Shown piece after piece: positions 8,121 through 53,276 of a stretch of 64,000 nucleotides of DNA. Every line of letters starts with the position of its first letter. Position 1 is the stretch's first letter. The notes under the pieces are model-generated. The model did no database searches. It was given only the letters and a program-made list of their open reading frames with translations, and was not told where the DNA came from. Source of the stretch: Escherichia coli (GTDB lineage: Bacteria > Pseudomonadota > Gammaproteobacteria > Enterobacterales > Enterobacteriaceae); assembly GCF_036507355.1 (NCBI RefSeq), contig NZ_AP027877.1. One strand, written 5' to 3'. The position numbers and the translations under genes were made by a program.

Positions 8121-9500
8121 CCGGACGCAACTGAACATCATCAGGACACGCAGCCGCTGGATGCTCAGTCACAGGTAAATTCTGTTGATGCGAAATATCA
8201 GGAACTGCGGGCAGAACTCCATGAAGCCCGGAAAAACATTCCATCAAAAAATCCTGTCGATGCCGATAAATTGCTTGCTGCATCACGTGGTGAATTTGTT
8301 GACGGAATTAGCGACCCGAACGATCCGAAATGGGTAAAGGGGATCCAGACTCGCGATTGTGTGTACCAGAACCAGCCAGAAACGGAAAAAACCAGCCCAG
8401 ATATGAATCAACCTGAGCCAGTAGTGCAACAGGAACCGGAAATAGCCTGCAATGCCTGCGGCCAGACTGGCGGGGATAACTGCCCTGACTGTGGTGCGGT
8501 GATGGGCGACGCAACATACCAGGAAACATTCGATGAAGAGAGTCAGGTTGAAGCTAAGGAAAATGATCCGGAGGAAATGGAAGGCGCTGAACATCCGCAC
8601 AATGAGAATGCTGGCAGCGATCCGCATCGCGATTGCAGTGATGAAACTGGCGAAGTCGCAGATCCCGTAATCGTAGAAGACATAGAGCCAGGTATTTATT
8701 ACGGAATTTCGAATGAGAATTACCACGCGGGTCCCGGTATCAGTAAGTCTCAGCTCGATGACATTGCTGATACTCCGGCACTATATTTGTGGCGTAAAAA
8801 TGCCCCCGTGGACACCACAAAGACAAAAACGCTCGATTTAGGAACTGCTTTCCACTGCCGGGTACTTGAACCGGAAGAATTCAGTAACCGCTTTATCGTA
8901 GCACCTGAATTTAACCGCCGTACAAACGCCGGAAAAGAAGAAGAGAAAGCGTTTCTGATGGAATGCGCAAGCACAGGAAAAACGGTTATCACTGCGGAAG
9001 AAGGCCGGAAAATTGAACTCATGTATCAAAGCGTTATGGCTTTGCCGCTGGGGCAATGGCTTGTTGAAAGCGCCGGACACGCTGAATCATCAATTTACTG
9101 GGAAGATCCTGAAACAGGAATTTTGTGTCGGTGCCGTCCGGACAAAATTATCCCTGAATTTCACTGGATCATGGACGTGAAAACTACGGCGGATATTCAA
9201 CGATTCAAAACCGCTTATTACGACTACCGCTATCACGTTCAGGATGCATTCTACAGTGACGGTTATGAAGCACAGTTTGGAGTGCAGCCAACTTTCGTTT
9301 TTCTGGTTGCCAGCACAACTATTGAATGCGGACGTTATCCGGTTGAAATTTTCATGATGGGCGAAGAAGCAAAACTGGCAGGTCAACAGGAATATCACCG
9401 CAATCTGCGAACCCTGTCTGACTGCCTGAATACCGATGAATGGCCAGCTATTAAGACATTATCACTGCCCCGCTGGGCTAAGGAATATGCAAATGACTAA
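8121..9500 (+). pseudogene. recE: exonuclease VIII (RecE) C-terminal fragment, N-terminally truncated at the IS3 junction
   Basis: frame open from the IS3 boundary; ends ...[13 protein letters not shown] and overlaps the recT start as in Rac; about 460 of ~866 codons remain. Confidence 0.8.
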
Positions 9501-10302
9501 GCAACCACCAATCGCAAAAGCCGATCTGCAAAAAACTCAGGGAAACCGTGCACCAGCAGCAGTTAAAAATAGCGACGTGATTAGTTTTATTAACCAGCCA
9601 TCAATGAAAGAGCAACTGGCAGCAGCTCTTCCACGCCATATGACGGCTGAACGTATGATCCGTATCGCCACCACAGAAATTCGTAAAGTTCCGGCGTTAG
9701 GAAACTGTGACACTATGAGTTTTGTCAGTGCGATCGTACAGTGTTCACAGCTCGGACTTGAGCCAGGTAGCGCCCTCGGTCATGCATATTTACTGCCTTT
9801 TGGTAATAAAAACGAAAAGAGCGGTAAAAAGAACGTTCAGCTAATCATTGGCTATCGCGGCATGATTGATCTGGCTCGCCGTTCTGGTCAAATCGCCAGC
9901 CTGTCAGCCCGTGTTGTCCGTGAAGGTGACGAGTTTAGCTTCGAATTTGGCCTTGATGAAAAGTTAATACACCGCCCGGGAGAAAACGAAGATGCCCCGG
10001 TTACCCACGTCTATGCTGTCGCAAGACTGAAAGACGGAGGTACTCAGTTTGAAGTTATGACGCGCAAACAGATTGAGCTGGTGCGCAGCCTGAGTAAAGC
10101 TGGTAATAACGGGCCGTGGGTAACTCACTGGGAAGAAATGGCAAAGAAAACGGCTATTCGTCGCCTGTTCAAATATCTGCCCGTATCAATTGAGATCCAG
10201 CGTGCAGTATCAATGGATGAAAAGGAACCACTGACAATCGATCCTGCAGATTCCTCTGTATTAACCGGGGAATACAGTGTAATCGATAATTCAGAGGAAT
10301 AA
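9493..10302 (+). CDS. recT: recombinase RecT (single-strand annealing protein)
   Basis: 269 aa starting [24 protein letters not shown]... Confidence 0.9.
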
Positions 10303-10431
10303 TTCAGCCTGGCGGTGTAATGCACCGCCAACTTGAAATATTTTTTATGAGAAAAATTATGAGATATGACAATGTTGGTGATGCTGCCAACTTACTGATT
10401 TAGTGTATGATGGTGTTTTTGAGGTGCTCCA

Positions 10432-10707
10432 GTGGCTTCTGTTTCTATCAGCTGTCCCTCCTGTTCAGCTACTGACGGGGTGGTGCGTAACGGCAAAAGC
10501 ACCGCCGGACATCAGCGCTATCTCTGCTCTCACTGCCGTAAAACATGGCAACTGCAGTTCACTTACACCGCTTCTCAACCCGGTACGCACCAGAAAATCA
10601 TTGATATGGCCATGAATGGCGTTGGATGCCGGGCAACAGCCCGCATTATGGGCATTGGCCTCAACACGATTTTACGTCACTTAAAAAACTCAGGCCGCAG
10701 TCGGTAA
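10432..10707 (+). CDS. insA: IS1 InsA
   Basis: 91-aa [23 protein letters not shown]... zinc-finger/HTH protein; A6C frameshift motif near 10683. Confidence 0.9.
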
Positions 10708-11129
10708 CCTCGCGCATACAGCCGGGCAGTGACGTCATCGTCTGCGCGGAAATGGACGAACAGTGGGGCTATGTCGGGGCTAAATCGCGCCAGCGCTGGC
10801 TGTTTTACGCGTATGACAGGCTCCGGAAGACGGTTGTTGCGCACGTATTCGGTGAACGCACGATGGCGACGCTGGGGCGTCTTATGAGCCTGCTGTCACC
10901 CTTTGACGTGGTGATATGGATGACGGATGGCTGGCCGCTGTATGAATCCCGCCTGAAGGGAAAGCTGCACGTAATCAGCAAGCGATATACGCAGCGAATT
11001 GAGCGGCATAACCTGAATCTGAGGCAGCACCTGGCACGGCTGGGACGGAAGTCGCTGTCGTTCTCAAAATCGGTGGAGCTGCATGACAAAGTCATCGGGC
11101 ATTATCTGAACATAAAACACTATCAATAA
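10626..11129 (+). CDS. insB: IS1 InsB (expressed as the InsAB' frameshift fusion)
   Basis: 167-aa ORF overlapping insA in the -1 frame. Confidence 0.85.
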
Positions 11130-11322
11130 GTTGGAGTCATTACCGACAATGTTAAACCATGTCCATTTTGTGGTTGTCCATCAGTAACGGTGAAAGCCAT
11201 TTCAGGATATTACCGAGCGAAGTGTAACGGATGCGAATCCCGAACCGGTTATGGTGGAAGTGAAAAAGAAGCACTCGAAAGATGGAATAAACGAACCACT
11301 GGAAATAATAATGGAGGTGTTC

Positions 11323-14178: not shown

Positions 14179-15552
14179 TTATTTTAATAACCGCACCCGG
14201 CACGTTTTTCCTTTAATCTTCCCGCCCTGTAACTGTTTCCATGCTTTATGAGCAACAGCCTGACGGACCGCGACATAGACATGCGCCGGATGCACGGCGA
14301 TTTTGCCAATATCTGCGCCATCAAGCCCGATATCTCCTGTCAGTGCACCTAATACATCACCCGGGCGCATTTTGGCTTTTTTCCCGCCATCGATACACAA
14401 CGTTGCCATTTCTGCTTCCAGCGTCACAATGGAACTATTAGCTGGCGGCGTTTGCCAGTTAAGTTTTATCTGCAACATGTCAGAAATGATATTGGCCCGC
14501 TGTGCTTCTTCCGGAGCACAGAAACTGATCGCCAGACCGCTATTTCCTGCACGAGCTGTACGACCGATGCGATGTACATGAACTTCAGGGTCCCACGCCA
14601 GCTCAAAGTTCACCACCAGCTCAAGCGATTTAATATCCAGACCACGCGCAGCAACATCAGTCGCGACCAGTACACGGGCGCTACCGTTAGCAAAACGTAC
14701 CAGGGTCTGATCGCGATCGCGTTGCTCCAAATCGCCGTGTAATGACAATGCACTTTGCCCTACTTCATTCAGCGCGTCGCAGACAGCCTGGCAATCTTTT
14801 TTGGTATTGCAAAACACCACGCAAGAGGATGGCTGATGCAAGCTTAATAACCGTTGCAACAGAGGAATTTTGCCTTTACTGGATGTCTCATAAAATTGTT
14901 GATCAATGGGTGGCAAAGCATCTGTTGAGTCAATTTCAATCGCCAAAGGATCGCGTTGCACTCGTCCGCTGATTGCAGCGATGGCTTCCGGCCAGGTTGC
15001 TGAAAACAGAAGCGTCTGTCGAGATGCAGGCGCAAAACGGATGACATCATCAATGGCATCGCTAAATCCCATATCCAGCATGCGGTCGGCCTCATCCATC
15101 ACCAAAGTATTCAGCGCATCCAGTGATACCGTGCCTTTTTGCAAGTGATCCAGCAAACGACCCGGCGTTGCCACGATAATATGCGGCGCATGTTGCAACG
15201 AATCACGCTGCATACCGAACGGTTGACCACCGCACAACGTCAAAATTTTGGTATTTGGCAGAAAACGCGCCAGCCGACGCAATTCACCTGCCACCTGATC
15301 CGCCAGTTCACGCGTAGGACACAGCACTAAAGCCTGGGTTTGAAATAGCGACGCATCAATTTGCTGTAACAAGCCGAGGCCAAAAGCCGCCGTTTTGCCG
15401 CTGCCGGTTTTCGCCTGCACGCGAACATCTTTTCCGGCAAGGATCGCCGGAAGCGCGGCGGCCTGCACCGGCGTCATGGTTAAATAACCCAACTCATTAA
15501 GGTTCGTGAGTTGGGCGGGAGGCAAAACATTCAGGGTAGAAAAAGCGGTCAC
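14179..15552 (-). CDS. dbpA: ATP-dependent RNA helicase DbpA (DEAD-box)
   Basis: 457 aa with Q-motif, GSGKT Walker A and DEAD box. Confidence 0.9.
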   Translation of the reverse strand: MTAFSTLNVLPPAQLTNLNELGYLTMTPVQAAALPAILAGKDVRVQAKTGSGKTAAFGLGLLQQIDASLFQTQALVLCPTRELADQVAGELRRLARFLPNTKILTLCGGQPFGMQRDSLQHAPHIIVATPGRLLDHLQKGTVSLDALNTLVMDEADRMLDMGFSDAIDDVIRFAPASRQTLLFSATWPEAIAAISGRVQRDPLAIEIDSTDALPPIDQQFYETSSKGKIPLLQRLLSLHQPSSCVVFCNTKKDCQAVCDALNEVGQSALSLHGDLEQRDRDQTLVRFANGSARVLVATDVAARGLDIKSLELVVNFELAWDPEVHVHRIGRTARAGNSGLAISFCAPEEAQRANIISDMLQIKLNWQTPPANSSIVTLEAEMATLCIDGGKKAKMRPGDVLGALTGDIGLDGADIGKIAVHPAHVYVAVRQAVAHKAWKQLQGGKIKGKTCRVRLLK

Positions 15553-15812
15553 AATCTATTCTCGTGGTCATCGACGCAAAGTTAGCAGGCGCGTATCCTC
15601 GCAGATCTACGCTCACGATGCGACAATTTAATCGGTTCTTCATCGGGTGGTGGGTCAGGCATGGGTTGCGGGCGAGGGATCGGATCGGGCACTGGAACAG
15701 GATCGCCAGGAATCGGTTCAGGGACAGGAATTTGCAAATAAATAAGTGTCGTCATATTTCCCTCCGGTCATTGGGTGGACTCTTAAAGGGTAGACGCTGA
15801 TAAATAACAGGC

Positions 15813-15934
15813 AAAAAAAAGCCGACTCATCAAAGTCGGCGTCGTACGAATCAATTGTGCTATGCAGTAATTCAAAAAAGGAAGTAAGACAATATGGAGC
15901 GCAACGCCCATCGCTTGACGTTGCATTCACCTGC
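15813..15934 (-). ncRNA. fnrS: FNR-activated small RNA FnrS
   Basis: reverse complement reads gcaggtgaatgcaacgtcaagcgatgggcgttgcgctccatattgtc... ending in a gccgacttt/aaagtcggc hairpin plus U-run. Confidence 0.8.
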
Positions 15935-15969
15935 AAGAGAGATATTGCCCTGAATGGGTAGAGAGTTTA

Positions 15970-15983
15970 TTGACTTCGCTCAA
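15970..15983 (-). promoter_or_regulatory. FNR box (TTGAC-N4-CTCAA) about 41.5 bp upstream of the fnrS start
   Basis: ttgacttcgctcaa half-site palindrome centred ~42 bp upstream of the inferred FnrS 5' end. Confidence 0.6.
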
Positions 15984-16029
15984 ACTTTGCGGCGTTTTTG
16001 TATACAGACAGCCGGAAAAATTGCTTTTG

Positions 16030-17034
<1,005 letters not shown>

Positions 17035-17267
17035 TTATTTTGTAGTCTAGCCTTCTGGCCCTGTTACGCAACATCTCATCACCCCATTACCCTGAAATGA
17101 TTAATAAAATTCTGTCTAAATTGAATACAAAAAGCAAAATGCTTTTCCGTATACAAACCGTGTGAAGTGTTAAATAGCGTCTATCATTATCAGAATTATC
17201 TGATCATATGACGAGGCTTTTTTGCGATCGGATAGCAACAAAAATTGATAAAAATAATGGGATCTCA

Positions 17268-18500
17268 ATGATTACGCACAACTTCAATACCCTGGACTTA
17301 CTCACCAGTCCTGTCTGGATCGTTTCGCCCTTTGAGGAACAGTTAATTTATGCCAATAGCGCGGCGCGACTGTTGATGCAAGACCTCACGTTTAGTCAGC
17401 TACGAACCGGTCCCTATTCCGTCTCCTCACAAAAAGAACTGCCGAAATACCTCTCCGATCTGCAAAACCAACACGATATTATCGAAATCCTCACTGTTCA
17501 GCGTAAAGAAGAGGAAACAGCATTAAGCTGTCGGCTTGTTTTGCGAGAGCTGACAGAAACAGAACCGGTGATTATTTTCGAAGGTATCGAAGCGCCGGCA
17601 ACGCTGGGGTTAAAAGCCAGTCGCTCGGCAAATTATCAGCGCAAAAAACAAGGTTTTTATGCGCGCTTTTTTCTGACTAACTCTGCACCAATGTTGTTGA
17701 TTGACCCGTCACGAGATGGACAAATCGTCGATGCTAACCTCGCCGCGCTCAATTTCTATGGTTATAACCATGAAACGATGTGCCAGAAACATACCTGGGA
17801 AATAAATATGCTCGGGCGTCGCGTCATGCCTATCATGCATGAAATTTCGCATTTACCCGGCGGTCATAAACCTTTGAATTTTGTTCATAAACTGGCGGAT
17901 GGATCTACTCGTCATGTGCAGACCTATGCCGGACCGATTGAAATTTATGGCGACAAGCTCATGTTATGTATTGTGCATGATATTACTGAGCAAAAACGGC
18001 TGGAGGAGCAGCTGGAACATGCTGCTCACCATGACGCGATGACCGGATTACTGAATCGGCGACAGTTTTATCACATTACGGAACCAGGCCAAATGCAGCA
18101 TCTCGCCATCGCTCAGGATTACAGCTTGTTGCTCATCGACACCGATCGTTTTAAACACATTAACGATCTCTATGGGCATTCTAAAGGTGATGAGGTGTTA
18201 TGCGCCCTCGCCCGCACCCTCGAAAGTTGCGCTCGCAAAGGCGATTTGGTGTTTCGTTGGGGAGGCGAAGAGTTTGTCTTATTGCTACCAAGAACCCCAC
18301 TGGATACCGCGCTTTCGCTGGCTGAAACTATCCGCGTAAGCGTGGCAAAAGTGAGTATTTCGGGCTTACCACGCTTTACCGTCAGCATTGGTGTGGCGCA
18401 TCACGAAGGAAATGAAAGCATCGATGAACTGTTTAAACGCGTTGATGATGCTTTGTATCGGGCGAAAAATGATGGACGCAACCGCGTGCTGGCGGCATAA
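17268..18500 (+). CDS. dgcM: diguanylate cyclase DgcM (PAS-GGDEF)
   Basis: PAS region followed by a GGEEF motif (RWGGEEFVLLLP); tracked ORF starts at 17208. Confidence 0.85.
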   Translation: MITHNFNTLDLLTSPVWIVSPFEEQLIYANSAARLLMQDLTFSQLRTGPYSVSSQKELPKYLSDLQNQHDIIEILTVQRKEEETALSCRLVLRELTETEPVIIFEGIEAPATLGLKASRSANYQRKKQGFYARFFLTNSAPMLLIDPSRDGQIVDANLAALNFYGYNHETMCQKHTWEINMLGRRVMPIMHEISHLPGGHKPLNFVHKLADGSTRHVQTYAGPIEIYGDKLMLCIVHDITEQKRLEEQLEHAAHHDAMTGLLNRRQFYHITEPGQMQHLAIAQDYSLLLIDTDRFKHINDLYGHSKGDEVLCALARTLESCARKGDLVFRWGGEEFVLLLPRTPLDTALSLAETIRVSVAKVSISGLPRFTVSIGVAHHEGNESIDELFKRVDDALYRAKNDGRNRVLAA

Positions 18501-18559
18501 GCCGCGGATGCGTCTCGAGATCAACGACTGCGCTTAGCGTGGCGCTCCCAGTTTTCTTG

Positions 18560-19084
18560 CTACGCCTGCGCCGTTTTACGTAGTGCGACGTAACACGCCC
18601 CGCTGCCGCCATGATGCGGTAGCGCGGTGCAATATGCCTGAACATCATCAAATTCGGTCAGCCAGCGCGCCACATAGCTGCGGACAATATTGGCATGCGA
18701 TTTATCATCCCGCCCTTTACCATGAATAATCAGCACGTTACGCAAACCATCCGCCAGGGCTTGTTGAATAAAACTGAACACCATTTTGCGGCACTCTTCC
18801 ACCGGCTGGCGCAAAAGATTCAGGCTCGCCTGTTGCGGATATTTACCACTGCGCAGCTTATCCAGCACCCCATGTTGCAACCCTTCCCGCCGAAACTCCA
18901 GCGGCTGACTTAGTGGGATGATGTCGAGAAATCCGGTGGTGAGGAAATTATCAAGCTGCAGCGTGTCGATACGCTGCGGCGCACGTTGGTTACGCGTTGG
19001 ATGCCAGTGGACATCGGTAGCACGTTTCAGCGGCTGGACATCTTCCATGGCGTCAAGAAACAGCGATTTGTCGTCAAGGTTCAT
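18560..19084 (-). CDS. smrA: Smr-domain DNA endonuclease SmrA
   Basis: 174-aa ORF MNLDDKSLFLDAMEDVQPL... with Smr domain region (LIIHGKGRDD). Confidence 0.7.
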   Translation of the reverse strand: MNLDDKSLFLDAMEDVQPLKRATDVHWHPTRNQRAPQRIDTLQLDNFLTTGFLDIIPLSQPLEFRREGLQHGVLDKLRSGKYPQQASLNLLRQPVEECRKMVFSFIQQALADGLRNVLIIHGKGRDDKSHANIVRSYVARWLTEFDDVQAYCTALPHHGGSGACYVALRKTAQA

Positions 19085-19278
19085 GTAACCTCCTATGCAC
19101 CTTCACACGTCGTGATTCAGACGGGTTAATTGTTCATACTTACTGCATCGTTCCCTTCACAGATTGAAACAATACTCTACTTCATACCTGTGAGTATCTG
19201 CGCAGGCGGGGCATTTTATACTAGCCTGTTAGCAGTATCGAACAGTTTAGCCCGAGTTTAATTCAGCACAGGCTCCGA

Positions 19279-20792
19279 TCAGGATGATTTATTCATAGCA
19301 GGAACCAACAAAAATGCGATAAATAACAGACCACTGATTAGCAGAAAGGTATCCGAAAATGCCATAGTTTGCGCCTCCCTCAGCATCAATTGACTCAATA
19401 ATTTGGTTGAAGCCAGTATTTCCGATGTCTGGTCACTTCCACTGCGATTAAAAAATAAAGCACTTCTGGAAATGAAGTCATTCACCGTATGGGGAACAGA
19501 AACCATTTTTTCACCCATTCTCGAAAAATGAAAATTAGTTCGATTATTGAGAATAGAGCCACACAGGGCAATACCGATCGCGCCCCCAAGATTACGTGTT
19601 AAATTAAATACACCAGAGGCTAACTTCAGCCGTTCTTTTGGAATTCCCCCCAGCGTTAATGTTACGATGGGGGCCATCGCAAACTGCTGCGAAATCCCTC
19701 TAATTGCCTGTGGAAACAGTAACTCCTGCCATCCCCATTCGTGGGTTATAGGGGTAAAAAGATACATTGAAAACACAAATCCGCCCAGCCCCGCCATCAA
19801 CAGCCATCGCAGATTTATTTTTTTACTTAACCAGAAGTAAAAGGGAACAGAAAATAACTGGAAAATACCTGTTGTGCAAACGGCAAAACCTATCTCTTCG
19901 GCATTTAATCCGCGAATCTGCCCCAAAAACACAGGTATTAAATATACAGTAGAGAATATCCCAACTCCTCCAGAAAAAGAAAAAAACATCCCAGAGTGAA
20001 ATTTTTATCCTTAAAAGCATGAAGATCCATTATCGGATTGGATATTGTAAGTGTACGCGCAGCAAATAAAATAAAACTCACCAATGCCAGAACTGATGTC
20101 AGCAAAATAGTATTATCATCCAGCCATCCCCAGCGCGCTCCTTCTTCAAGGGTATATTCCAGACATCCCAGTGTCATGGCCAACAGGATAATACTCGGAT
20201 AATCAGCAACTTTCAGTAAAGAGAGATCAGGTTTATCAAAATTAACCAGAAAAGGAATACTCAAAACTAAATATATGCCAGGTAATATATTGATATAAAA
20301 TAGCCATCGCCAGTCGAGGTTATCAGTGATCCAGCCCCCCAGAGTTGGCCCTAGCGTCGGTGACAGTGAGGCCAGCGCACTGACTACCGCAGCAGCCAAC
20401 CCCAACTCTTTACCCTGGTAATAAATAAACGCCGTCGTGAAAACTAAAGGGATCATGGATGCGCCAGCAGCTCCCTGTAAAGCACGAAACAAAATCATGA
20501 TCTGAATATTCCATGCAAGTCCACACGCGATACTCATTAAAGTAAATATTCCCGCGGATAGAGTAAAAAGCCAACGAGTGGAAAATACCCGTGACAGCCA
20601 CCCAGAGAGCGGAATAACAATAATCTCAGCAATTAAATAGCTGGTCTGAAGCCAGGCCATTTCGTCTTTACCTGCGGACAGACCACCACCTATTTCATTT
20701 AGGGATGACGATACAATTTGAATATCAAGCTGAGCAATAAATAATCCCATACACATACTGGCGAAAGCAATATGTTTACGCATAGACATCAT
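19279..20792 (-). pseudogene. EmrB-like MFS efflux transporter, frameshifted in a homopolymer run
   Basis: two overlapping ORFs (284 aa and 236 aa) that together form one 14-TM-type MFS protein; frame break at the T/A run near 19977-19984. Confidence 0.7.
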
Positions 20793-21820
20793 CTCTCATC
20801 AACACTGACGGTGACGGACAGTCCCGGGCGAAGAAGTTGCTTTAATTCCTTTGCGTCGTCAAATGCAATCCGTACCGGGACACGCTGAACAATTTTGGTG
20901 AAATTGCCAGTGGCATTTTCTATCGGAATCAAGCTGAAACTGGCTCCTGTCGCTGGGGAAAGGCTTTCAATGTGACCGTGAAACACTTCCCCTTTGAGAA
21001 TATCAGCACGGATCTCAGCCTTCATTCCTGGCTTCATTCCCGCTATTTGGTTTTCTTTATAATTTGCATCAACCCACAACTCACTGACTGGTACTAGTGA
21101 AACTAACGATGTGCCGCCTTCCACCCAACTGCCTGTATGGGCGCTGCGGTTTGCGACAATGCCATCAATCGGCGCACGAACAAGGGTATATTCCAGATCC
21201 AGTAGTGCCTGAGTCAAAGCGGCCTGAACTTCTTCGATACTCGCACGTACGTTTTCTTCCTGAGCAGATAAAACTGCCAGCCGTTGCTTCTCCACCAGGA
21301 AATCGTTCGCGGCTTTGCGCTCCTTTGCTGCGACCTGCTGGTAGTCAAACCTGGCGTTATCAATAATTTGTTGCGATATTGCCGCTGATTGTGCGAGTTT
21401 TTCATAACGTTCAGTATCTCGCAGGCGCTTTTGCTCCTCATGTTTTACTGCCTGCCATGTTTCACTGGCACTTTGAATTATCGACTGCTGCATCGCAATA
21501 GTGGCTTGAATGCTTTCGAGATTGGCTTTGCTACTTTTTATTTTTGCCTCAAGCCTGGCGACATTTGCACGATAATCCCGATCATCGAGACGCAGGATAA
21601 TATCGCCTTTTTTTACGCTCTGATTATCGCGCACCTCTATAGCAGAAATATAACCAGAAACTTTACTTGCCACCGTGGTGATATTACCACCAATGTAAGC
21701 ATCATCCGTCGTCTGTATAAATCTTCCTTTGCTTACCCACCAGATAAAAAAGACAACGCCAGTCAAAAGAATACCGATCGCTACCACCCCAATAAGCTGT
21801 TTTTTAGAAATTATCATCAC
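20789..21820 (-). CDS. HlyD/EmrA-family membrane fusion protein
   Basis: 343 aa, N-terminal TM helix, long coiled-coil, C-terminal beta domain; start overlaps the MFS gene by 4 nt. Confidence 0.75.
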   Translation of the reverse strand: MMIISKKQLIGVVAIGILLTGVVFFIWWVSKGRFIQTTDDAYIGGNITTVASKVSGYISAIEVRDNQSVKKGDIILRLDDRDYRANVARLEAKIKSSKANLESIQATIAMQQSIIQSASETWQAVKHEEQKRLRDTERYEKLAQSAAISQQIIDNARFDYQQVAAKERKAANDFLVEKQRLAVLSAQEENVRASIEEVQAALTQALLDLEYTLVRAPIDGIVANRSAHTGSWVEGGTSLVSLVPVSELWVDANYKENQIAGMKPGMKAEIRADILKGEVFHGHIESLSPATGASFSLIPIENATGNFTKIVQRVPVRIAFDDAKELKQLLRPGLSVTVSVDER

Positions 21821-21913
21821 TCTTTACACCGTATATATCCGGAAACTTGCATACGTCATATTTAAAATTTAACATGGCTTATTTGATGATTTCTGACAAA
21901 ATACCTACTGTAA

Positions 21914-22729
21914 ATGACAATTACACTGCAACCCAAAGCATCACCAGGGCATCACATTATCGGACTGGATTCGGAACATCTGAATGGAGGTACAGTTCCC
22001 TGGCATAAACATCTCTATGCCCAGTTGCTTTACCCGGCTGAAGGAGTCGTTCGTGTATGGGCTGGAGAAAGCGTCTGGCTAGTCCATGCCAGCAGCGCGC
22101 TTTGGCTGCCCCCACAAATGCCGCATAAGTTTGTTGCGACAGGCAACGTACTTTTAAAAACCGTACTGGTTTCAGAAGCGGAAAGTGAAACGCTGGGAAC
22201 AGTTTGCTTCATGACGGGTATTTCACCCCTGTTAAGGGAATTACTAATTGCAATTAACCAACTTCCACCGTCGCAAAGTACCACAGATAAACAACAGTTA
22301 CGTTTTTCAGCCCTCGAGACACTGATACTTCAGGAAATAAAAATGGGGGTGAAAATGTCACTTGAACTCCCTTGGCCAAATGATGAGCGGCTACAGCAGC
22401 TTTGTGAGAATTTGCTAAACAACCAAGGGTATCTGCCAACACTGGATAATCTAGCGGATAAAATTAACGTCAGTAGCCGTACACTCATGCGCTTATTTGT
22501 TAAAGAGACGGGATTAACATTTCGCCACTGGGTTCAGCAAATGCACGTTATATCTGCAGTGACGCTTCTTGATGATGGATATTCGTTGACCAAAATTGCC
22601 CATCGTCTGGGCTATGCCTCAGCTGAATCGTTCGGCAATATGTTTAAGCGTCGAACGGGTTACTCGCCCGGTAAATTTACTCGTCGATTAACGATGCATG
22701 ATTATGCAATCACAAGACAAATGATTTAA
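21914..22729 (+). CDS. AraC-family transcriptional regulator
   Basis: 271 aa with cupin-like N-domain and C-terminal double HTH; divergent from the efflux genes. Confidence 0.75.
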   Translation: MTITLQPKASPGHHIIGLDSEHLNGGTVPWHKHLYAQLLYPAEGVVRVWAGESVWLVHASSALWLPPQMPHKFVATGNVLLKTVLVSEAESETLGTVCFMTGISPLLRELLIAINQLPPSQSTTDKQQLRFSALETLILQEIKMGVKMSLELPWPNDERLQQLCENLLNNQGYLPTLDNLADKINVSSRTLMRLFVKETGLTFRHWVQQMHVISAVTLLDDGYSLTKIAHRLGYASAESFGNMFKRRTGYSPGKFTRRLTMHDYAITRQMI

Positions 22730-22799
22730 CTTATATTTTCGTGAAATCTGTCACTGAAGAAAATTGGCAACGGATGGGTAAAACCGTTATAACACTGTC

Positions 22800-22893
22800 A
22801 CCGGTCACCAGGACCCCAGGCCGGATTTAAGACGAGGATGCACTGCTGTGTGTACTGTAGAGTCTGGCGGATGTCGACAGGCTCTATTTTTTT
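22800..22893 (+). ncRNA. mcaS: McaS-like small RNA
   Basis: accggtcaccaggaccccaggccggatttaagacgaggatgcactgctgtgtgtactgtagagtctggcggatgtcgacaggctctattttttt resembles remembered McaS; strand assignment tentative. Confidence 0.55.
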
Positions 22894-23272
22894 ATTCATT
22901 TTTTAGCTCTGTAAATAACCACATTCTCGCCGGGATTGGGGAATGAGTGACGAGATCAGTGGTGTCTGGCGGCTATCACGCCACAGAATCAAATAACAGA
23001 TAGCCTACGGTAAAATTTCGCTGACTGGAATTATCCCACCCTCGATCCATGTGATGGCTTGCCCTCATTTCTTCAGGCAGAAAAATCAAAAAATCGCTTT
23101 ATGCTATCAAACTGCGACAAACCAGACGCGAAACTGGGTACTTACTATTCGTTAGTCTTGCCCTATCCACTTATCTTTTTGGTGGTATGGCTGCTGATGT
23201 TGCTGGCGTGGTATCTTGTCGGTCTGCCGATAGGTCCGGGTATTTACCCACGTTTGTCTTAAGAGAGAACGG

Positions 23273-23788
23273 ATGCTGAGATTACTTGAAGAAAAAATTG
23301 CCACGCCACTGGGTCCACTGTGGGTGATTTGCGATGAGCAATTTCGCCTGCGGGCGGTTGAATGGGAAGAGTACAGCGAACGCATGGTGCAGCTGCTGGA
23401 CATCCATTATCGCAAAGAAGGCTATGAGCGCATTTCTGCCACCAACCCAGGTGGTTTAAGCGACAAGCTTCGTGAATATTTTGCCGGTAATCTTAGCATT
23501 ATTGATACGCTTCCCACTGCCACGGGGGGGACGCCATTTCAGCGCGAAGTCTGGAAAACACTGCGCACTATCCCCTGCGGGCAGGTAATGCATTACGGCC
23601 AACTGGCTGAACAATTGGGCCGCCCTGGCGCGGCGCGTGCCGTTGGTGCGGCAAACGGATCGAATCCCATCAGCATCGTCGTACCTTGCCATCGGGTTAT
23701 TGGCCGAAACGGCACCATGACCGGATATGCAGGCGGAGTTCAGCGAAAAGAGTGGTTATTGCGCCACGAAGGTTATCTTTTGCTGTAA
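23273..23788 (+). CDS. ogt: O6-methylguanine-DNA methyltransferase
   Basis: 171 aa with PCHRV active-site motif. Confidence 0.9.
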
Positions 23789-50596: not shown

Positions 50597-50972
50597 GAGA
50601 TGTTCCTTTTTATTTAATCCACATAACCTGCCAGGGGCGCAGCGTTATTTCATTACCCAATATATCAACTTCACTAATCAGATCCCGACCATGCAGATCA
50701 GTAATATTTACATGCTGAATATTTTCACTGACATTAAACAATCCAGTCAGACAATTACCATCAGCGTTACTTCTTTGAATACGCATTACGGATGAATTAA
50801 CCGTATCAATGGTAAAATTATTATCCGGATGAAACTCGTTATGGCTGCGACGAAGTGTAATTAAACGCGACAACTCATGATATACCGCATGCCTTAATGT
50901 AGCTTCATCGTTCAGTTGGTGATGCTGCCAACTTACTGATTTAGTGTATGATGGTGTTTTTGAGGTGCTCCA

Positions 50973-51248
50973 GTGGCTTCTGTTTCTATCAGCTGTCCCT
51001 CCTGTTCAGCTACTGACGGGGTGGTGCGTAACGGCAAAAGCACCGCCGGACATCAGCGCTATCTCTGCTCTCACTGCCGTAAAACATGGCAACTGCAGTT
51101 CACTTACACCGCTTCTCAACCCGGTACGCACCAGAAAATCATTGATATGGCCATGAATGGCGTTGGATGCCGGGCAACAGCCCGCATTATGGGCATTGGC
51201 CTCAACACGATTTTACGTCACTTAAAAAACTCAGGCCGCAGTCGGTAA
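50973..51248 (+). CDS. insA: IS1 InsA
   Basis: identical to the insA at 10432. Confidence 0.9.
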
Positions 51249-51670
51249 CCTCGCGCATACAGCCGGGCAGTGACGTCATCGTCTGCGCGGAAATGGACGA
51301 ACAGTGGGGCTATGTCGGGGCTAAATCGCGCCAGCGCTGGCTGTTTTACGCGTATGACAGGCTCCGGAAGACGGTTGTTGCGCACGTATTCGGTGAACGC
51401 ACGATGGCGACGCTGGGGCGTCTTATGAGCCTGCTGTCACCCTTTGACGTGGTGATATGGATGACGGATGGCTGGCCGCTGTATGAATCCCGCCTGAAGG
51501 GAAAGCTGCACGTAATCAGCAAGCGATATACGCAGCGAATTGAGCGGCATAACCTGAATCTGAGGCAGCACCTGGCACGGCTGGGACGGAAGTCGCTGTC
51601 GTTCTCAAAATCGGTGGAGCTGCATGACAAAGTCATCGGGCATTATCTGAACATAAAACACTATCAATAA
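51167..51670 (+). CDS. insB: IS1 InsB
   Basis: identical to the insB at 10626. Confidence 0.85.
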
Positions 51671-53276
51671 GTTGGAGTCATTACCCGTTCAGTTCTCGTG
51701 TTATCTCTTCACTGTGATATTTTTTACGGTTAATCGCACGGTTATATCCGAGTTTTTCGACACCTGCGTAATCATTACGCGAGCCCAGAATACTTTGAAT
51801 ATATATCGCTGGCACACCGGGGAAACTTAACAAAATCGCATGGGCAAGGATAAACCTGGCGCAACGTTCTTCATCGCTACTCTCGCGGCGGCTTAACGCA
51901 TCCATATAGGTGACATTTATTTCATAGGGACTGCGCGTACCGTCGGGATTATTTTTCCAGTTTACTAATGCACCTTCCTGCTGTAATGCCTCGATCAGCG
52001 CTAATATTTCGCTTTCTGGTAACAAGCCCCGCAGTGGGTTCAGCCCGATGCCATCGTGAGAGGCGAGGAAGTTAAACCAGGTCGTTTTACCGGAGGGCAA
52101 GCTCAGACTTTGCGCCCACTGGCACAGCGCCTCGACGTTCTGTTTTTGCACCGCATGTAACACCAGCGGCGGCAGCGAGAACTGGTACACCATATGCGCT
52201 TCGTCATCGCCTTCGCCAAAGTAAGCAATGTTATCTTTATGCGGAACATTCGTCTCAGTAATAATCACCGTACCTGGCGCGATGTCATCAATAATCGACC
52301 GTAACAGTTTGATAATCAGATGTGTTTTTTCCAGATGGATGCAGCTTGTTCCCGGCTCTTTCCACATAAAGCCAACGGCATCCAGACGGACATATTCTGC
52401 GCCCTTTTCCAGGTAGCACAGCAATACATCCACCATCGCCAGCAACACTTCAGGGCTACGGTAATTGAGGTCAATTTGATCGTCGCTAAAGGTGGTCCAT
52501 AAATGGCGCGTGGAATTATCATCCATTTGAAACGGCGTTAATAGCGGTAACGCACGCGGACGGGTGACGGCACTGAGATCGGTTTTCGGATCAACCGCAA
52601 TAAAGAAATCTTTAAAACCCGGAAGCTGTTGCAAATAGTTTTTAAACCATTCACTTTTTGCCGACATATGGTTGCAGACAAAATCAAACATTAAATGACT
52701 GCATTCACCGAGCTGCTGAATATCCTGCCACTCCCCCGCTTCACTGGCGACCTGATGATAATCAATTACCGAAAATCCATCATCAGATGACCATGGATAA
52801 AAAGGTAATAAATGAACATGTGAAAAAATGCTTTGCAGCCATTGGTGGTAAAACTGATTAAATGTGGGTAGTGGTTTTAAATCATTACTGTGAAATTGAT
52901 CGGCATAGGTAATTAACACGACGTCACTTTCATCCCAGTGTTTTTTACGTCGCTGTGTAATTAATCGTTTCGCACTCTCAAGACGCGTTACAAGTTTCTG
53001 TAAATGAGTTGCGGTAAATGTTCCACCGTAGATTTCGCCCAGGTAATCCGTAATTTTCTGTTTCATGTTGCCTTTCCGTGGTAGCGGTCCCATGAAACGA
53101 GAGACTACTCCGCAGAAAATAAACTGTCAATTGAGCACAAGGGTTTTAGTCACGCAGGAAATCATTTTTTACCAGGGAAAAAGCGTATTTGTGAGCTGAC
53201 GCAAATAATCTATAGGGATGTAAATAAGGTGTGACAGAAAAAAACGGCGCATAAGCGCCGCTCATGGTGAATTCTT

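Follow-up and report, generated by a model that had tools for sequence, protein, structure and literature searches.

The locus between smrA and mcaS raises the question of whether a homopolymer that breaks the reading frame of a drug-efflux pump gene reflects simple decay or a slippage-prone on/off switch. In the stretch of Escherichia coli DNA analysed here (64,000 nucleotides; hereafter the window), a three-gene drug-efflux-type cassette (19279–22729), in which an AraC-type regulator gene is divergent from an adaptor–pump operon, lies between these two genes. The cassette stands in place of 111 unrelated nt found between smrA and mcaS in K-12, and no homology between this K-12 filler and the module was found. 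The GC content of the cassette is 0.439 compared with 0.496 for the whole window. The features of the locus are as follows.

18560–19084, smrA, flanking gene.
19095–22693, no strand assigned, 3.6-kb accessory cassette (MFS, adaptor and AraC genes) for which BLAST of the window against K-12 found no counterpart.
19279–20792, minus strand, MFS pump gene (EmrB-like DHA2), both halves.
19279–19989, minus strand, 3′ part of the pump gene, read in the −1 frame as an ORF of 236 aa, colinear with residues 269–504 of the intact allele and with EmrB.
19938–20792, minus strand, 5′ part of the pump gene, a 284-aa ORF with a PF07690 match at residues 14–248.
19980–19986, minus strand, frameshift site, T7 on the coding strand (A7 on the plus strand), located by alignments to intact alleles.
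20789–21820, minus strand, intact gene for an EmrA/HlyD-type periplasmic adaptor of 343 aa (ORF and profile matches).
21821–21913, no strand assigned, divergent intergenic region of 93 nt, from the gene arrangement.
21914–22729, plus strand, intact gene for an AraC-family regulator of 271 aa (N-terminal cupin/AraC_binding, C-terminal HTH_18).
22800–22895, plus strand, mcaS sRNA gene, flanking and outside the cassette (Rfam RF00115, 112.8 bits).
22903–23114, minus strand, abgR 3′ remnant, a pseudogene stub 81% identical to K-12.
23114–23262, plus strand, abgT 3′ remnant of the final ~149 nt, contiguous with the abgR stub.
23273–23788, ogt, flanking gene.

The ORFs (236, 284, 343 and 271 aa) and their profile matches bear out the first-pass annotation in its description of an AraC regulator, an EmrA/HlyD-type adaptor and an EmrB-type MFS pump in divergent arrangement, and its 284- and 236-aa pump ORFs do belong to a single gene, which a 1-nt frameshift in a homopolymer has cut in two. 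The run itself, which had been given as 8 nt at 19977–19984, is 7 nt long (A7 on the plus strand at 19980–19986, preceded by A5-G at 19974–19979), and 8 nt is the length found in intact alleles. In the latter, the T8 run forms part of TGT TTT TTT TCT (Cys269-Phe-Phe-Ser272). When one T is put back into the window sequence, a 504-aa ORF results, as in strains A30, Z142-4 and THO-003; UTI89-type strains also have a 504-aa ORF. The first 271 residues of the 284-aa ORF are native and agree with residues 1–271 of the 504-aa product of the intact allele; another 13, read out of frame (LFLEELGYSLLYI), precede the stop. The ATG of the 236-aa ORF is a chance start inside the tract (GGGATGTTTTTTT). The pump gene of the window is thus a pseudogene that has lost one T from a T8 run. 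Runs of at least 7 nt number 16 in the 64-kb window, three of them in the module, and the run is notable for breaking the frame, not for existing.

Homopolymer indels are a typical sequencing and assembly error, and the true gene could accordingly be intact; one other genome with T7, strain A34, is frameshifted in four adjacent genes. We consider this explanation very improbable for the window. Two independent short-read metagenome contigs (ENA ERZ27235504 and Logan SRR7532973) carry T7 together with the window-specific GGAGGAGTT variant and encode exactly the 284-aa product of the window, with the 236-aa ORF behind it; the T7 of the window is therefore genuine. T7 is also present in several other short-read assemblies.

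The products of the cassette were compared with known efflux families. The intact pump allele matches TIGR00711 (efflux_EmrB subfamily) over residues 9–496 of 504 with 405.7 bits (cut-off, 230.2), whereas in the window the pump is not one uninterrupted polypeptide. The best solved relatives of the pump and the adaptor are EmrB of the EmrAB complex (8zal_J, E = 6e-56, residues 12–489) and EmrA (8zar_A, E = 5.6e-43, residues 6–341), respectively. Both proteins score below the cut-offs for EmrB proper (NF000391, 219.9 versus 925 bits) and EmrA proper (NF011715, 206 versus 563 bits), and the adaptor also remains below that of TIGR00998 for the EmrA/EmrK subfamily (266.8 versus 390.8 bits), though aligned end to end (7–340 of 343), while exceeding that of the generic adaptor model TIGR01730 (132.5 versus 94.9 bits). 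On these scores, the two proteins are best regarded as paralog-level relatives of EmrB and EmrA, not as orthologs. Matches of the regulator to PF12833 (78.0 bits), PF02311 (34.7 bits) and PF07883 (29.7 bits), all above the gathering scores, place it in the AraC/XylS family, with a predicted C-terminal double HTH and N-terminal ligand-binding (cupin) domain.

The module resembles the emrRAB locus of E. coli K-12 (EmrAB-TolC) in its two-gene adaptor–pump operon with overlapping (coupled) frames, the adaptor stop and the MFS start sharing 4 nt (ATGA), and in having no outer-membrane gene; no gene for an outer-membrane factor was found between smrA and mcaS. It differs in its regulatory gene, which is of the AraC type and divergent, whereas EmrAB is regulated by the MarR-type EmrR. 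Unlike EmrAB, it is also accessory, and its pump is frameshifted here. By homology, the AraC-type protein would control the pump operon, and the 93-nt divergent region presumably contains the promoters and operator of both transcription units. A promoter and terminator scan yielded only weak consensus matches, near shuffle expectation, such as a sigma-70-like match on the minus strand (21914 to 21886).

An orthologous cassette, alike in its three genes and in their order and orientation, occurs in Citrobacter freundii, Kluyvera cryocrescens, Pluralibacter, Hafnia and Salmonella salamae, and in the Citrobacter- and Kluyvera-type genomes it lies in other chromosomal neighbourhoods. The pumps share 82% identity, the adaptors 68% (a gap-free alignment to the Citrobacter-type ortholog) and the regulators 80% (up to residue 256). 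The intact 504-aa pump aligns without gaps to the 505-aa orthologs of Citrobacter and Kluyvera, reading CFFSFSGG versus CFFSFAGG at the site of the frameshift. At the nucleotide level, the tract in other genera is TGTTTTTTCTCT (T6) versus T8 in E. coli; because the orthologs have T6, the T8 run is specific to E. coli and Shigella. Within E. coli, the best match to the module of the window is 99.7% identical, with no exact match. The AraC protein of the window is identical to Shigella entries, and the lesions specific to S. flexneri were not found in the window module. Elsewhere, the window carries two identical IS1 copies, and its 36–56-kb part matches E. coli only in pieces. The putative host would be an E. 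coli that is Shigella-like or rich in IS elements.

The AraC protein of the orthologous cassette is 262 aa long, whereas in the E. coli copy 12–15 codons spanning the insertion junction are additional or altered. The last ~12 codons of the AraC gene (22694–22729) are native E. coli sequence, with K-12 homology beginning at 22694. Loss of the module from K-12 by deletion, leaving an AraC 3′ relic, was considered and rejected: the K-12-homologous stretch starts four codons before the stop of the ortholog, which the E. coli AraC exceeds in length by 9 aa. The junction at the AraC 3′ end appears to fit insertion better than deletion.

The module had been thought to occupy the position of the K-12 abg (aminobenzoyl-glutamate) operon, and this placement needs correction. 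The order in K-12 is smrA-mcaS-abgR-abgABT-ogt; the module lies between smrA and mcaS, and abg lies between mcaS and ogt. In the window, abg has been lost by a separate deletion of ~5 kb (K-12 1400396–1405435), and the abutting abgR and abgT stubs are the scar of this event. In relatives, these stubs are annotated as a partial, frameshifted LysR gene and a partial AbgT transporter, respectively, and PF03806 matches a 67-aa ORF in the latter. In the alignment to K-12, the adjoining mcaS proves to be a variant allele whose 5′ hairpin is changed. Strain Z142-4 has both the module and abg, and inclusion–exclusion on the counts requires that at least 230 genomes do so. Module and operon are thus independent neighbours rather than alternatives, and the locus occurs in three states.

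About 1,320–1,450 of 5,426 complete E. coli genomes (approximately one-quarter) carry the module. The frequencies of T7 and T8 were estimated from two systematic (spread) samples of 60 genomes each and from the 60 closest relatives, not from a full census; tract length was taken from alignment length, and SNPs lie within 10–20 nt of the tract. T7 was present in 2/60 and 1/60 genomes of the systematic samples and in 3/60 of the closest relatives, no tract longer than 8 (T9) was found in any of the three sets, and the tract was in frame in ~97% of the sampled carriers. T7 calls in the database may include long-read homopolymer errors, A34 being a candidate. T7 lies on no fewer than four sequence backgrounds; it was seen in E2348/69, Nord8, S. 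flexneri and the clades of the window and of A34. Nord8 is identical to the T8 strain THO-003 elsewhere over 1515 nt. In the systematic sample with a single T7 genome, 22 of the 60 match THO-003 exactly, and that T7 genome, OZ547000, is near-identical to it at 99.9%. In a tree of 14 alleles, the group containing the window, A30 and A34 is explained equally parsimoniously by two T8-to-T7 losses or by one loss and one reversion. Synonymous changes break the tract in UTI89 and MS1737 (TGTTTCTTTTCT) and in ST80 (TGCTTTTTTTCT).

The pump gene is broken in many other ways. The lesions include G6-to-G5 losses at nt 453 and nt 1143, a GC deletion, the loss from an A7 run accompanied by a C-terminal deletion, IS1 insertions in some strains, a junction deletion of the M1/5 type and, in ~10% of the sample, a 1.85-kb deletion of the LF82 type. 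ST80_NDM carries a nonsense codon at position 330, a real nonsense allele; the reading of P0100, the 328-aa cluster representative, as a contig-end truncation was rejected. In S. flexneri, the adaptor gene contains an IS91-family insertion, and contigs that have a C-terminal frameshift in common differ in the tract (T7 versus T8), so that here the tract changes in an already dead gene. These findings favour the simple decay mutation over the slippage-prone switch, the two possibilities that the first-pass annotation had offered. It had also named invariance of the tract together with fixation of the gene as a pseudogene as what would contradict a switch. In spirit, this test goes against the switch, since the tract is near-invariant at T8, but the gene is not a fixed pseudogene, ~73% of the sampled carriers having an uninterrupted 1515-nt gene.

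We therefore regard the change from T8 to T7 as ordinary decay, that is, recurrent slippage in a dispensable, decaying pump gene of a horizontally spread EmrAB-type cassette and not a phase-variation tract, with a probability of roughly 0.87. In the proposed scenario, this locus contains a horizontally spread three-gene EmrAB-type efflux cassette, with a cupin-domain AraC-family regulator transcribed divergently from a two-gene operon for an EmrA-like adaptor and a predicted 14-helix DHA2 MFS proton antiporter. By homology to EmrAB, the intact pump would export some small molecule, presumably via TolC because the cassette is without an outer-membrane gene. T8, at codons 269–272, is the longest homopolymer in the pump gene and therefore its most slippage-prone site. 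With one T lost, translation departs from the frame after residue 271 and ends 13 codons on, so that the C-terminal six-helix half of the pump is missing; the window retains intact genes for the adaptor and the regulator. The same 1-nt loss has arisen several times on different E. coli and Shigella backgrounds, as one of many sporadic lesions rather than in a maintained phase-variation tract. Pseudogene formation in Shigella and E. coli by homopolymer slippage and IS insertion, here seen as deletions, insertions of IS1 and IS91 and the loss of 1 nt from T8, A7 or G6 runs, shows no material difference from what is found in the module and is the category to which it belongs.

A contingency tract, in which reversible slippage between T8 and T7 switches the pump on and off within populations, would share several of these properties. 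As in the poly-G and poly-C contingency loci of Campylobacter, Neisseria and Haemophilus, a 1-nt change in a coding homopolymer toggles the frame and recurs on several backgrounds, and recurrence at one site is also expected of a switch; the nesting of A30 (T8) between two T7 clades is compatible with reversion, and the length varies within S. flexneri. In contrast to those loci, however, the tract is only 8 nt long and is not conserved, ~97% of the sampled carriers keep the frame, every observed change was −1, and many irreversible lesions likewise destroy the gene. T7 is rare even within the THO-003-like haplotype (OZ547000 and Nord8). The tract is not maintained, being interrupted in the lineages of UTI89 and ST80 and only T6 in the orthologs. 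A/T runs of 8 nt are short for phase variation in mismatch-repair-proficient E. coli. Such a switch thus seems extremely unlikely. A similarly slim chance is left to a leaky T7 allele, in which a −1 ribosomal slip or the insertion of a U by RNA polymerase would restore the exact wild-type protein at a low level. U UUU UUU of the T7 allele forms a perfect −1 slippery heptamer in the right phase: a tandem slip on TGT TTT TTT CTT would re-pair both Phe tRNAs, the next codon would then be TCT, and the intact-allele sequence CFFSFSGG would result. The folding of the 90 nt that follow, however, does not surpass that of shuffled sequences (z = −0.18), so that no stimulatory structure is predicted, and the sole upstream SD-like element, GGGA, is 2 nt away, a spacing that is wrong for −1 stimulation. 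Furthermore, T7 is a rare derived allele that is not conserved, and runs of 7 show little transcriptional slippage. It is likewise highly doubtful that rare reversion of T7 to T8, or slippage, could re-arm the pump alongside the intact adaptor and regulator and thereby act as a low-frequency heritable expression dial, a proposal that draws on the sequence of the run and on its recurrence and on nothing else.

Ordinary decay thus remains the preferred reading, and the cassette itself is already known: more than 1,300 complete E. coli genomes have its genes routinely annotated as those of a DHA2 pump, an HlyD-family adaptor and an AraC regulator, and frameshifted copies are already flagged as pseudogenes. 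Among the papers searched, nothing relevant was found on the module or on the abg/B2 polymorphism. Added here are a corrected map of the locus, the recognition of T8 as the ancestral tract, the placing of its loss among many independent decay events and a caution about RefSeq labels, in which intact copies are called ‘frameshifted’, the reference probably being a truncated Shigella protein; a candidate is WP_162471458.1 of S. flexneri, with 488 aa and the C-terminal end AFSVPFC. The overall significance is small. If T7 were leaky or reverting, the site would be a heritable expression dial for the pump; the substrate and the inducer of the pump are a point for studies of B2/ExPEC-specific efflux.

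Profile searches bore out the AraC/HlyD/MFS module described in the first-pass annotation. The module and its flanking genes are arranged in the window as follows:

18560-19084, minus strand: smrA, flanking the module
19279-19989, minus strand: 3' ORF of the pump gene (236 aa), one half of a DHA2/EmrB-type MFS transporter
19938-20792, minus strand: 5' ORF of the pump gene (284 aa), the other half of this transporter
20789-21820, minus strand: EmrA/HlyD-type periplasmic adaptor (343 aa)
21914-22729, plus strand: AraC-family regulator (271 aa) with cupin/AraC_binding and HTH_18 domains
22800-22895, plus strand: mcaS (Rfam, 112.8 bits), flanking the module

The solved structures nearest to the pump and the adaptor are EmrB (8zal_J; E 6e-56, colinear over residues 12-489) and EmrA (8zar_A; E 5.6e-43), respectively. 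Three features are directly observed: the families to which the proteins belong, an overlap of 4 nt between the adaptor and pump ORFs, and the divergent orientation of the regulator gene. EmrAB is a paralog-level relative (ortholog cut-offs were missed in the profile search), whereas the module is the ortholog of an uncharacterised and widespread Enterobacteriaceae cassette. This cassette is already annotated in public genomes; no paper on it was found in the literature collection searched.

The gene order in K-12 is smrA-mcaS-abgR-abgA-abgB-abgT-ogt, and the following segments were distinguished by comparison with K-12:

15002-19094: 99.2% identical
19095-22693: without counterpart, with 111 unrelated nt in K-12
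22694-23114: 81% identical, containing mcaS with its promoter region and ~210 nt from the 3' end of abgR
23114 onward: 99.3% identical, restarting within the 3'-terminal 149 nt of abgT

These segments place the module between smrA and mcaS and not, as initially proposed, at the K-12 position of the abg (aminobenzoyl-glutamate) operon, which is absent through a separate ~5-kb deletion on the opposite side of mcaS. In the proposed comparison with abgRABT-carrying strains, Z142-4 was found to combine the module with a complete abgRABT. Because abgAB was found in 4,202 genomes and some part of the pump gene in 1,454 of 5,426 complete E. coli genomes, both must be present in at least 230 genomes. 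Identity to K-12 drops to 81% in the mcaS-abgR' segment, against 99% in both flanks, and the abgR stub contains frameshifts and stops; this pattern argues for an old, diverged haplotype and against recent decay. Z142-4 changes from the module type to the K-12 type at ~22880, which indicates a recombination breakpoint within mcaS. The module-linked McaS has an altered 5' hairpin (22803-22828; CCGGTCACCAGGACCCCAGGCCGG versus CCGGCGCAGAGGAGACAATGCCGG in K-12), which preserves the stem along with one GGA motif.

The GC content of the cassette is 0.44 (0.50 for the window), and the same three genes form a cassette in other genera, where they have unrelated neighbours. Between the E. coli AraC protein and its 262-aa orthologs, homology stops at residue 256. 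The regulator's final 12-15 codons (22682-22729) have no counterpart in them, and the last ~12 come from DNA also present in the K-12 smrA-mcaS spacer; thus, the right-hand cassette junction lies here and is crossed by the ORF. Among records classed as plasmids, 1-2 matches to the pump gene were found, and a wider 3.9-kb query matched in six places. Two direct, 100% identical copies of IS1 (771 nt, insA/insB) are located at 10374-11144, directly after the recT-like gene (9436-10302) of a Rac-type prophage, and at 50915-51685. Across 36-56 kb, matches to E. coli genomes come only in 5-6 pieces. Since an identical AraC protein occurs among Shigella entries and no complete E. coli genome matched exactly, the host, with its identical IS1 copies, appears to be IS-rich and Shigella-like. 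FnrS (Rfam RF01796, 134.8 bits) is encoded at 15817-15934 on the minus strand, downstream of zntB as in K-12.

The pump was reported to be split into 284-aa and 236-aa ORFs at an 8-nt A/T run (19977-19984). Both ORFs are present and the break lies at a homopolymer, but the run consists of seven A's at 19980-19986 (plus strand 19974-19986, AAAAAGAAAAAAA), i.e. T7 on the coding strand. With one extra base in this run, strain A30 has a single 504-aa ORF, and the 504-aa ORF is likewise unbroken in UTI89, Z142-4, and THO-003. The intact codons TGT TTT TTT TCT encode Cys269-Phe-Phe-Ser272; in the T7 allele, the native frame ends after residue 271, with a stop 13 codons on. The 504-aa pump is 82% identical to 505-aa orthologs from Citrobacter, Kluyvera, and related Enterobacteriaceae; the alignment is free of gaps, including at the site itself (CFFSFSGG in E. 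coli and CFFSFAGG in orthologs), indicating that T8 is both ancestral and functional in E. coli and that T7 is a 1-nt deletion. The ortholog tract (TGTTTTTTCTCT) contains T6 only; on sequence comparison, the E. coli/Shigella copy owes its 8-nt run to chance synonymous change. An assembly error in the window was ruled out, because T7 and the exact 284-aa product, with the 236-aa ORF after it, recur in two independent short-read assemblies that also have the window-specific SNP. Other T7 calls in the databases may include errors; strain A34 has frameshifts in four adjacent genes.

RefSeq/PGAP tags intact 504-aa ORFs as 'frameshifted' in UTI89 (L003 3895-5409), A30 (L001 6180-7694), and THO-003 (L015 2695-4209; local coordinates of each locus). 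The annotated pseudogene stops at a TAA 59 nt within the ORF (19338-19340 in the equivalent 19279-20792 of the window), and the same TAA terminates S. flexneri proteins of 484/488 aa ending in ...AFSVPFC (WP_162471458.1), which bear a 1-nt deletion. The label is probably an annotation artefact derived from a truncated reference protein. The Z142-4 pump is annotated as intact (WP_019842378.1).

The middle of the pump gene was found in 1,320 of the 5,426 genomes. Tract length was read from alignment length in two systematic samples (n=60 each; a 200-nt query and the whole 1515-nt gene) and in the 60 closest relatives. With the 200-nt query, 57 genomes were in frame (201 nt), two were T7 (200 nt; 2013C-4830 and E2348/69), and one was cut by IS1, its tract itself being in frame. 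In the whole-gene sample, the exact 1515-nt length was kept in 44/60; T7 was found in one genome, another single 1-nt deletion in two, two 1-nt deletions in one, an IS1 insertion in two, an adaptor/pump junction deletion (M1/5 type) in four, and the last 426 nt alone (LF82 type) in six. T7 was present in 3/60 closest relatives, and no tract longer than T8 by one base was found in any of the three samples.

Lesions elsewhere in the module are diverse. The non-tract 1-nt deletions of the whole-gene sample sit at G6 runs (nt 453 and nt 1143) and a GC repeat, four of the six pump-gene homopolymers of ≥6 nt are altered in some strain, and codon 330 is a nonsense codon in ST80_NDM. S. flexneri contigs share a 1-nt deletion near the pump C-terminus; three have T7 and one T8, and one has an extra deletion in an A7 run. 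Their adaptor gene is interrupted by an IS91-family (Y2 transposase) element (L030 4100-5298 and L031 4099-5298), and L031 has an IS1 transposase at the expected AraC gene position. Three distinct large module deletions are each fixed in their own lineage: the last 426 nt of the pump joined to the first 270 nt of the adaptor (L029 3060-3689; LF82, Seattle 1946, and others, ~10% of carriers); loss of the pump 5' end, adaptor, and part of AraC in the STEC lineage strain 2013C-4830 (L005 3954-5436); and loss of the adaptor/pump junction in M1/5 (L028 2560-4836).

By analogy with EmrAB-TolC, the intact pump would be a proton-driven exporter using TolC, switched on by the AraC-type regulator upon ligand binding. 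According to the EmrB alignment, the window pump is cut close to where the C-terminal six-helix bundle begins; because of this truncation, the efflux system should be non-functional, despite the intact adaptor and regulator genes. Speculatively, T7 could be leaky, as U UUU UUU is a perfect -1 slippery heptamer and slippage would give back the exact native sequence. No stimulatory structure was found downstream of T7 (fold z = -0.18), and the T7 allele is rare and derived.

The break had been read as either a simple decay mutation or a slippage-prone on/off switch, to be distinguished by tract-length variation among isolates. Such variation does exist, and an alignment of 14 full-length alleles revealed T7 on several backgrounds: the window with two metagenome contigs, the A34 clade, E2348/69, and Nord8, which is elsewhere identical to the T8 strain THO-003 at every position; S. 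flexneri is a further one. For the group formed by the window, A30, and A34, a scenario of two independent losses is as parsimonious as a single loss with a reversion. A switch is not supported, as T7 is rare in the systematic samples (2/60 and 1/60) and the run is broken by synonymous changes in UTI89 and MS1737 (TGTTTCTTTTCT) and in ST80 (TGCTTTTTTTCT). The many lesion types favour decay. Taken together, the population counts, recurrent T7, and interrupted tracts show a mutational hotspot in a gene on which selection is weak or absent, and give no evidence of a contingency tract that is maintained; the frameshift is a case of ordinary pseudogene formation.
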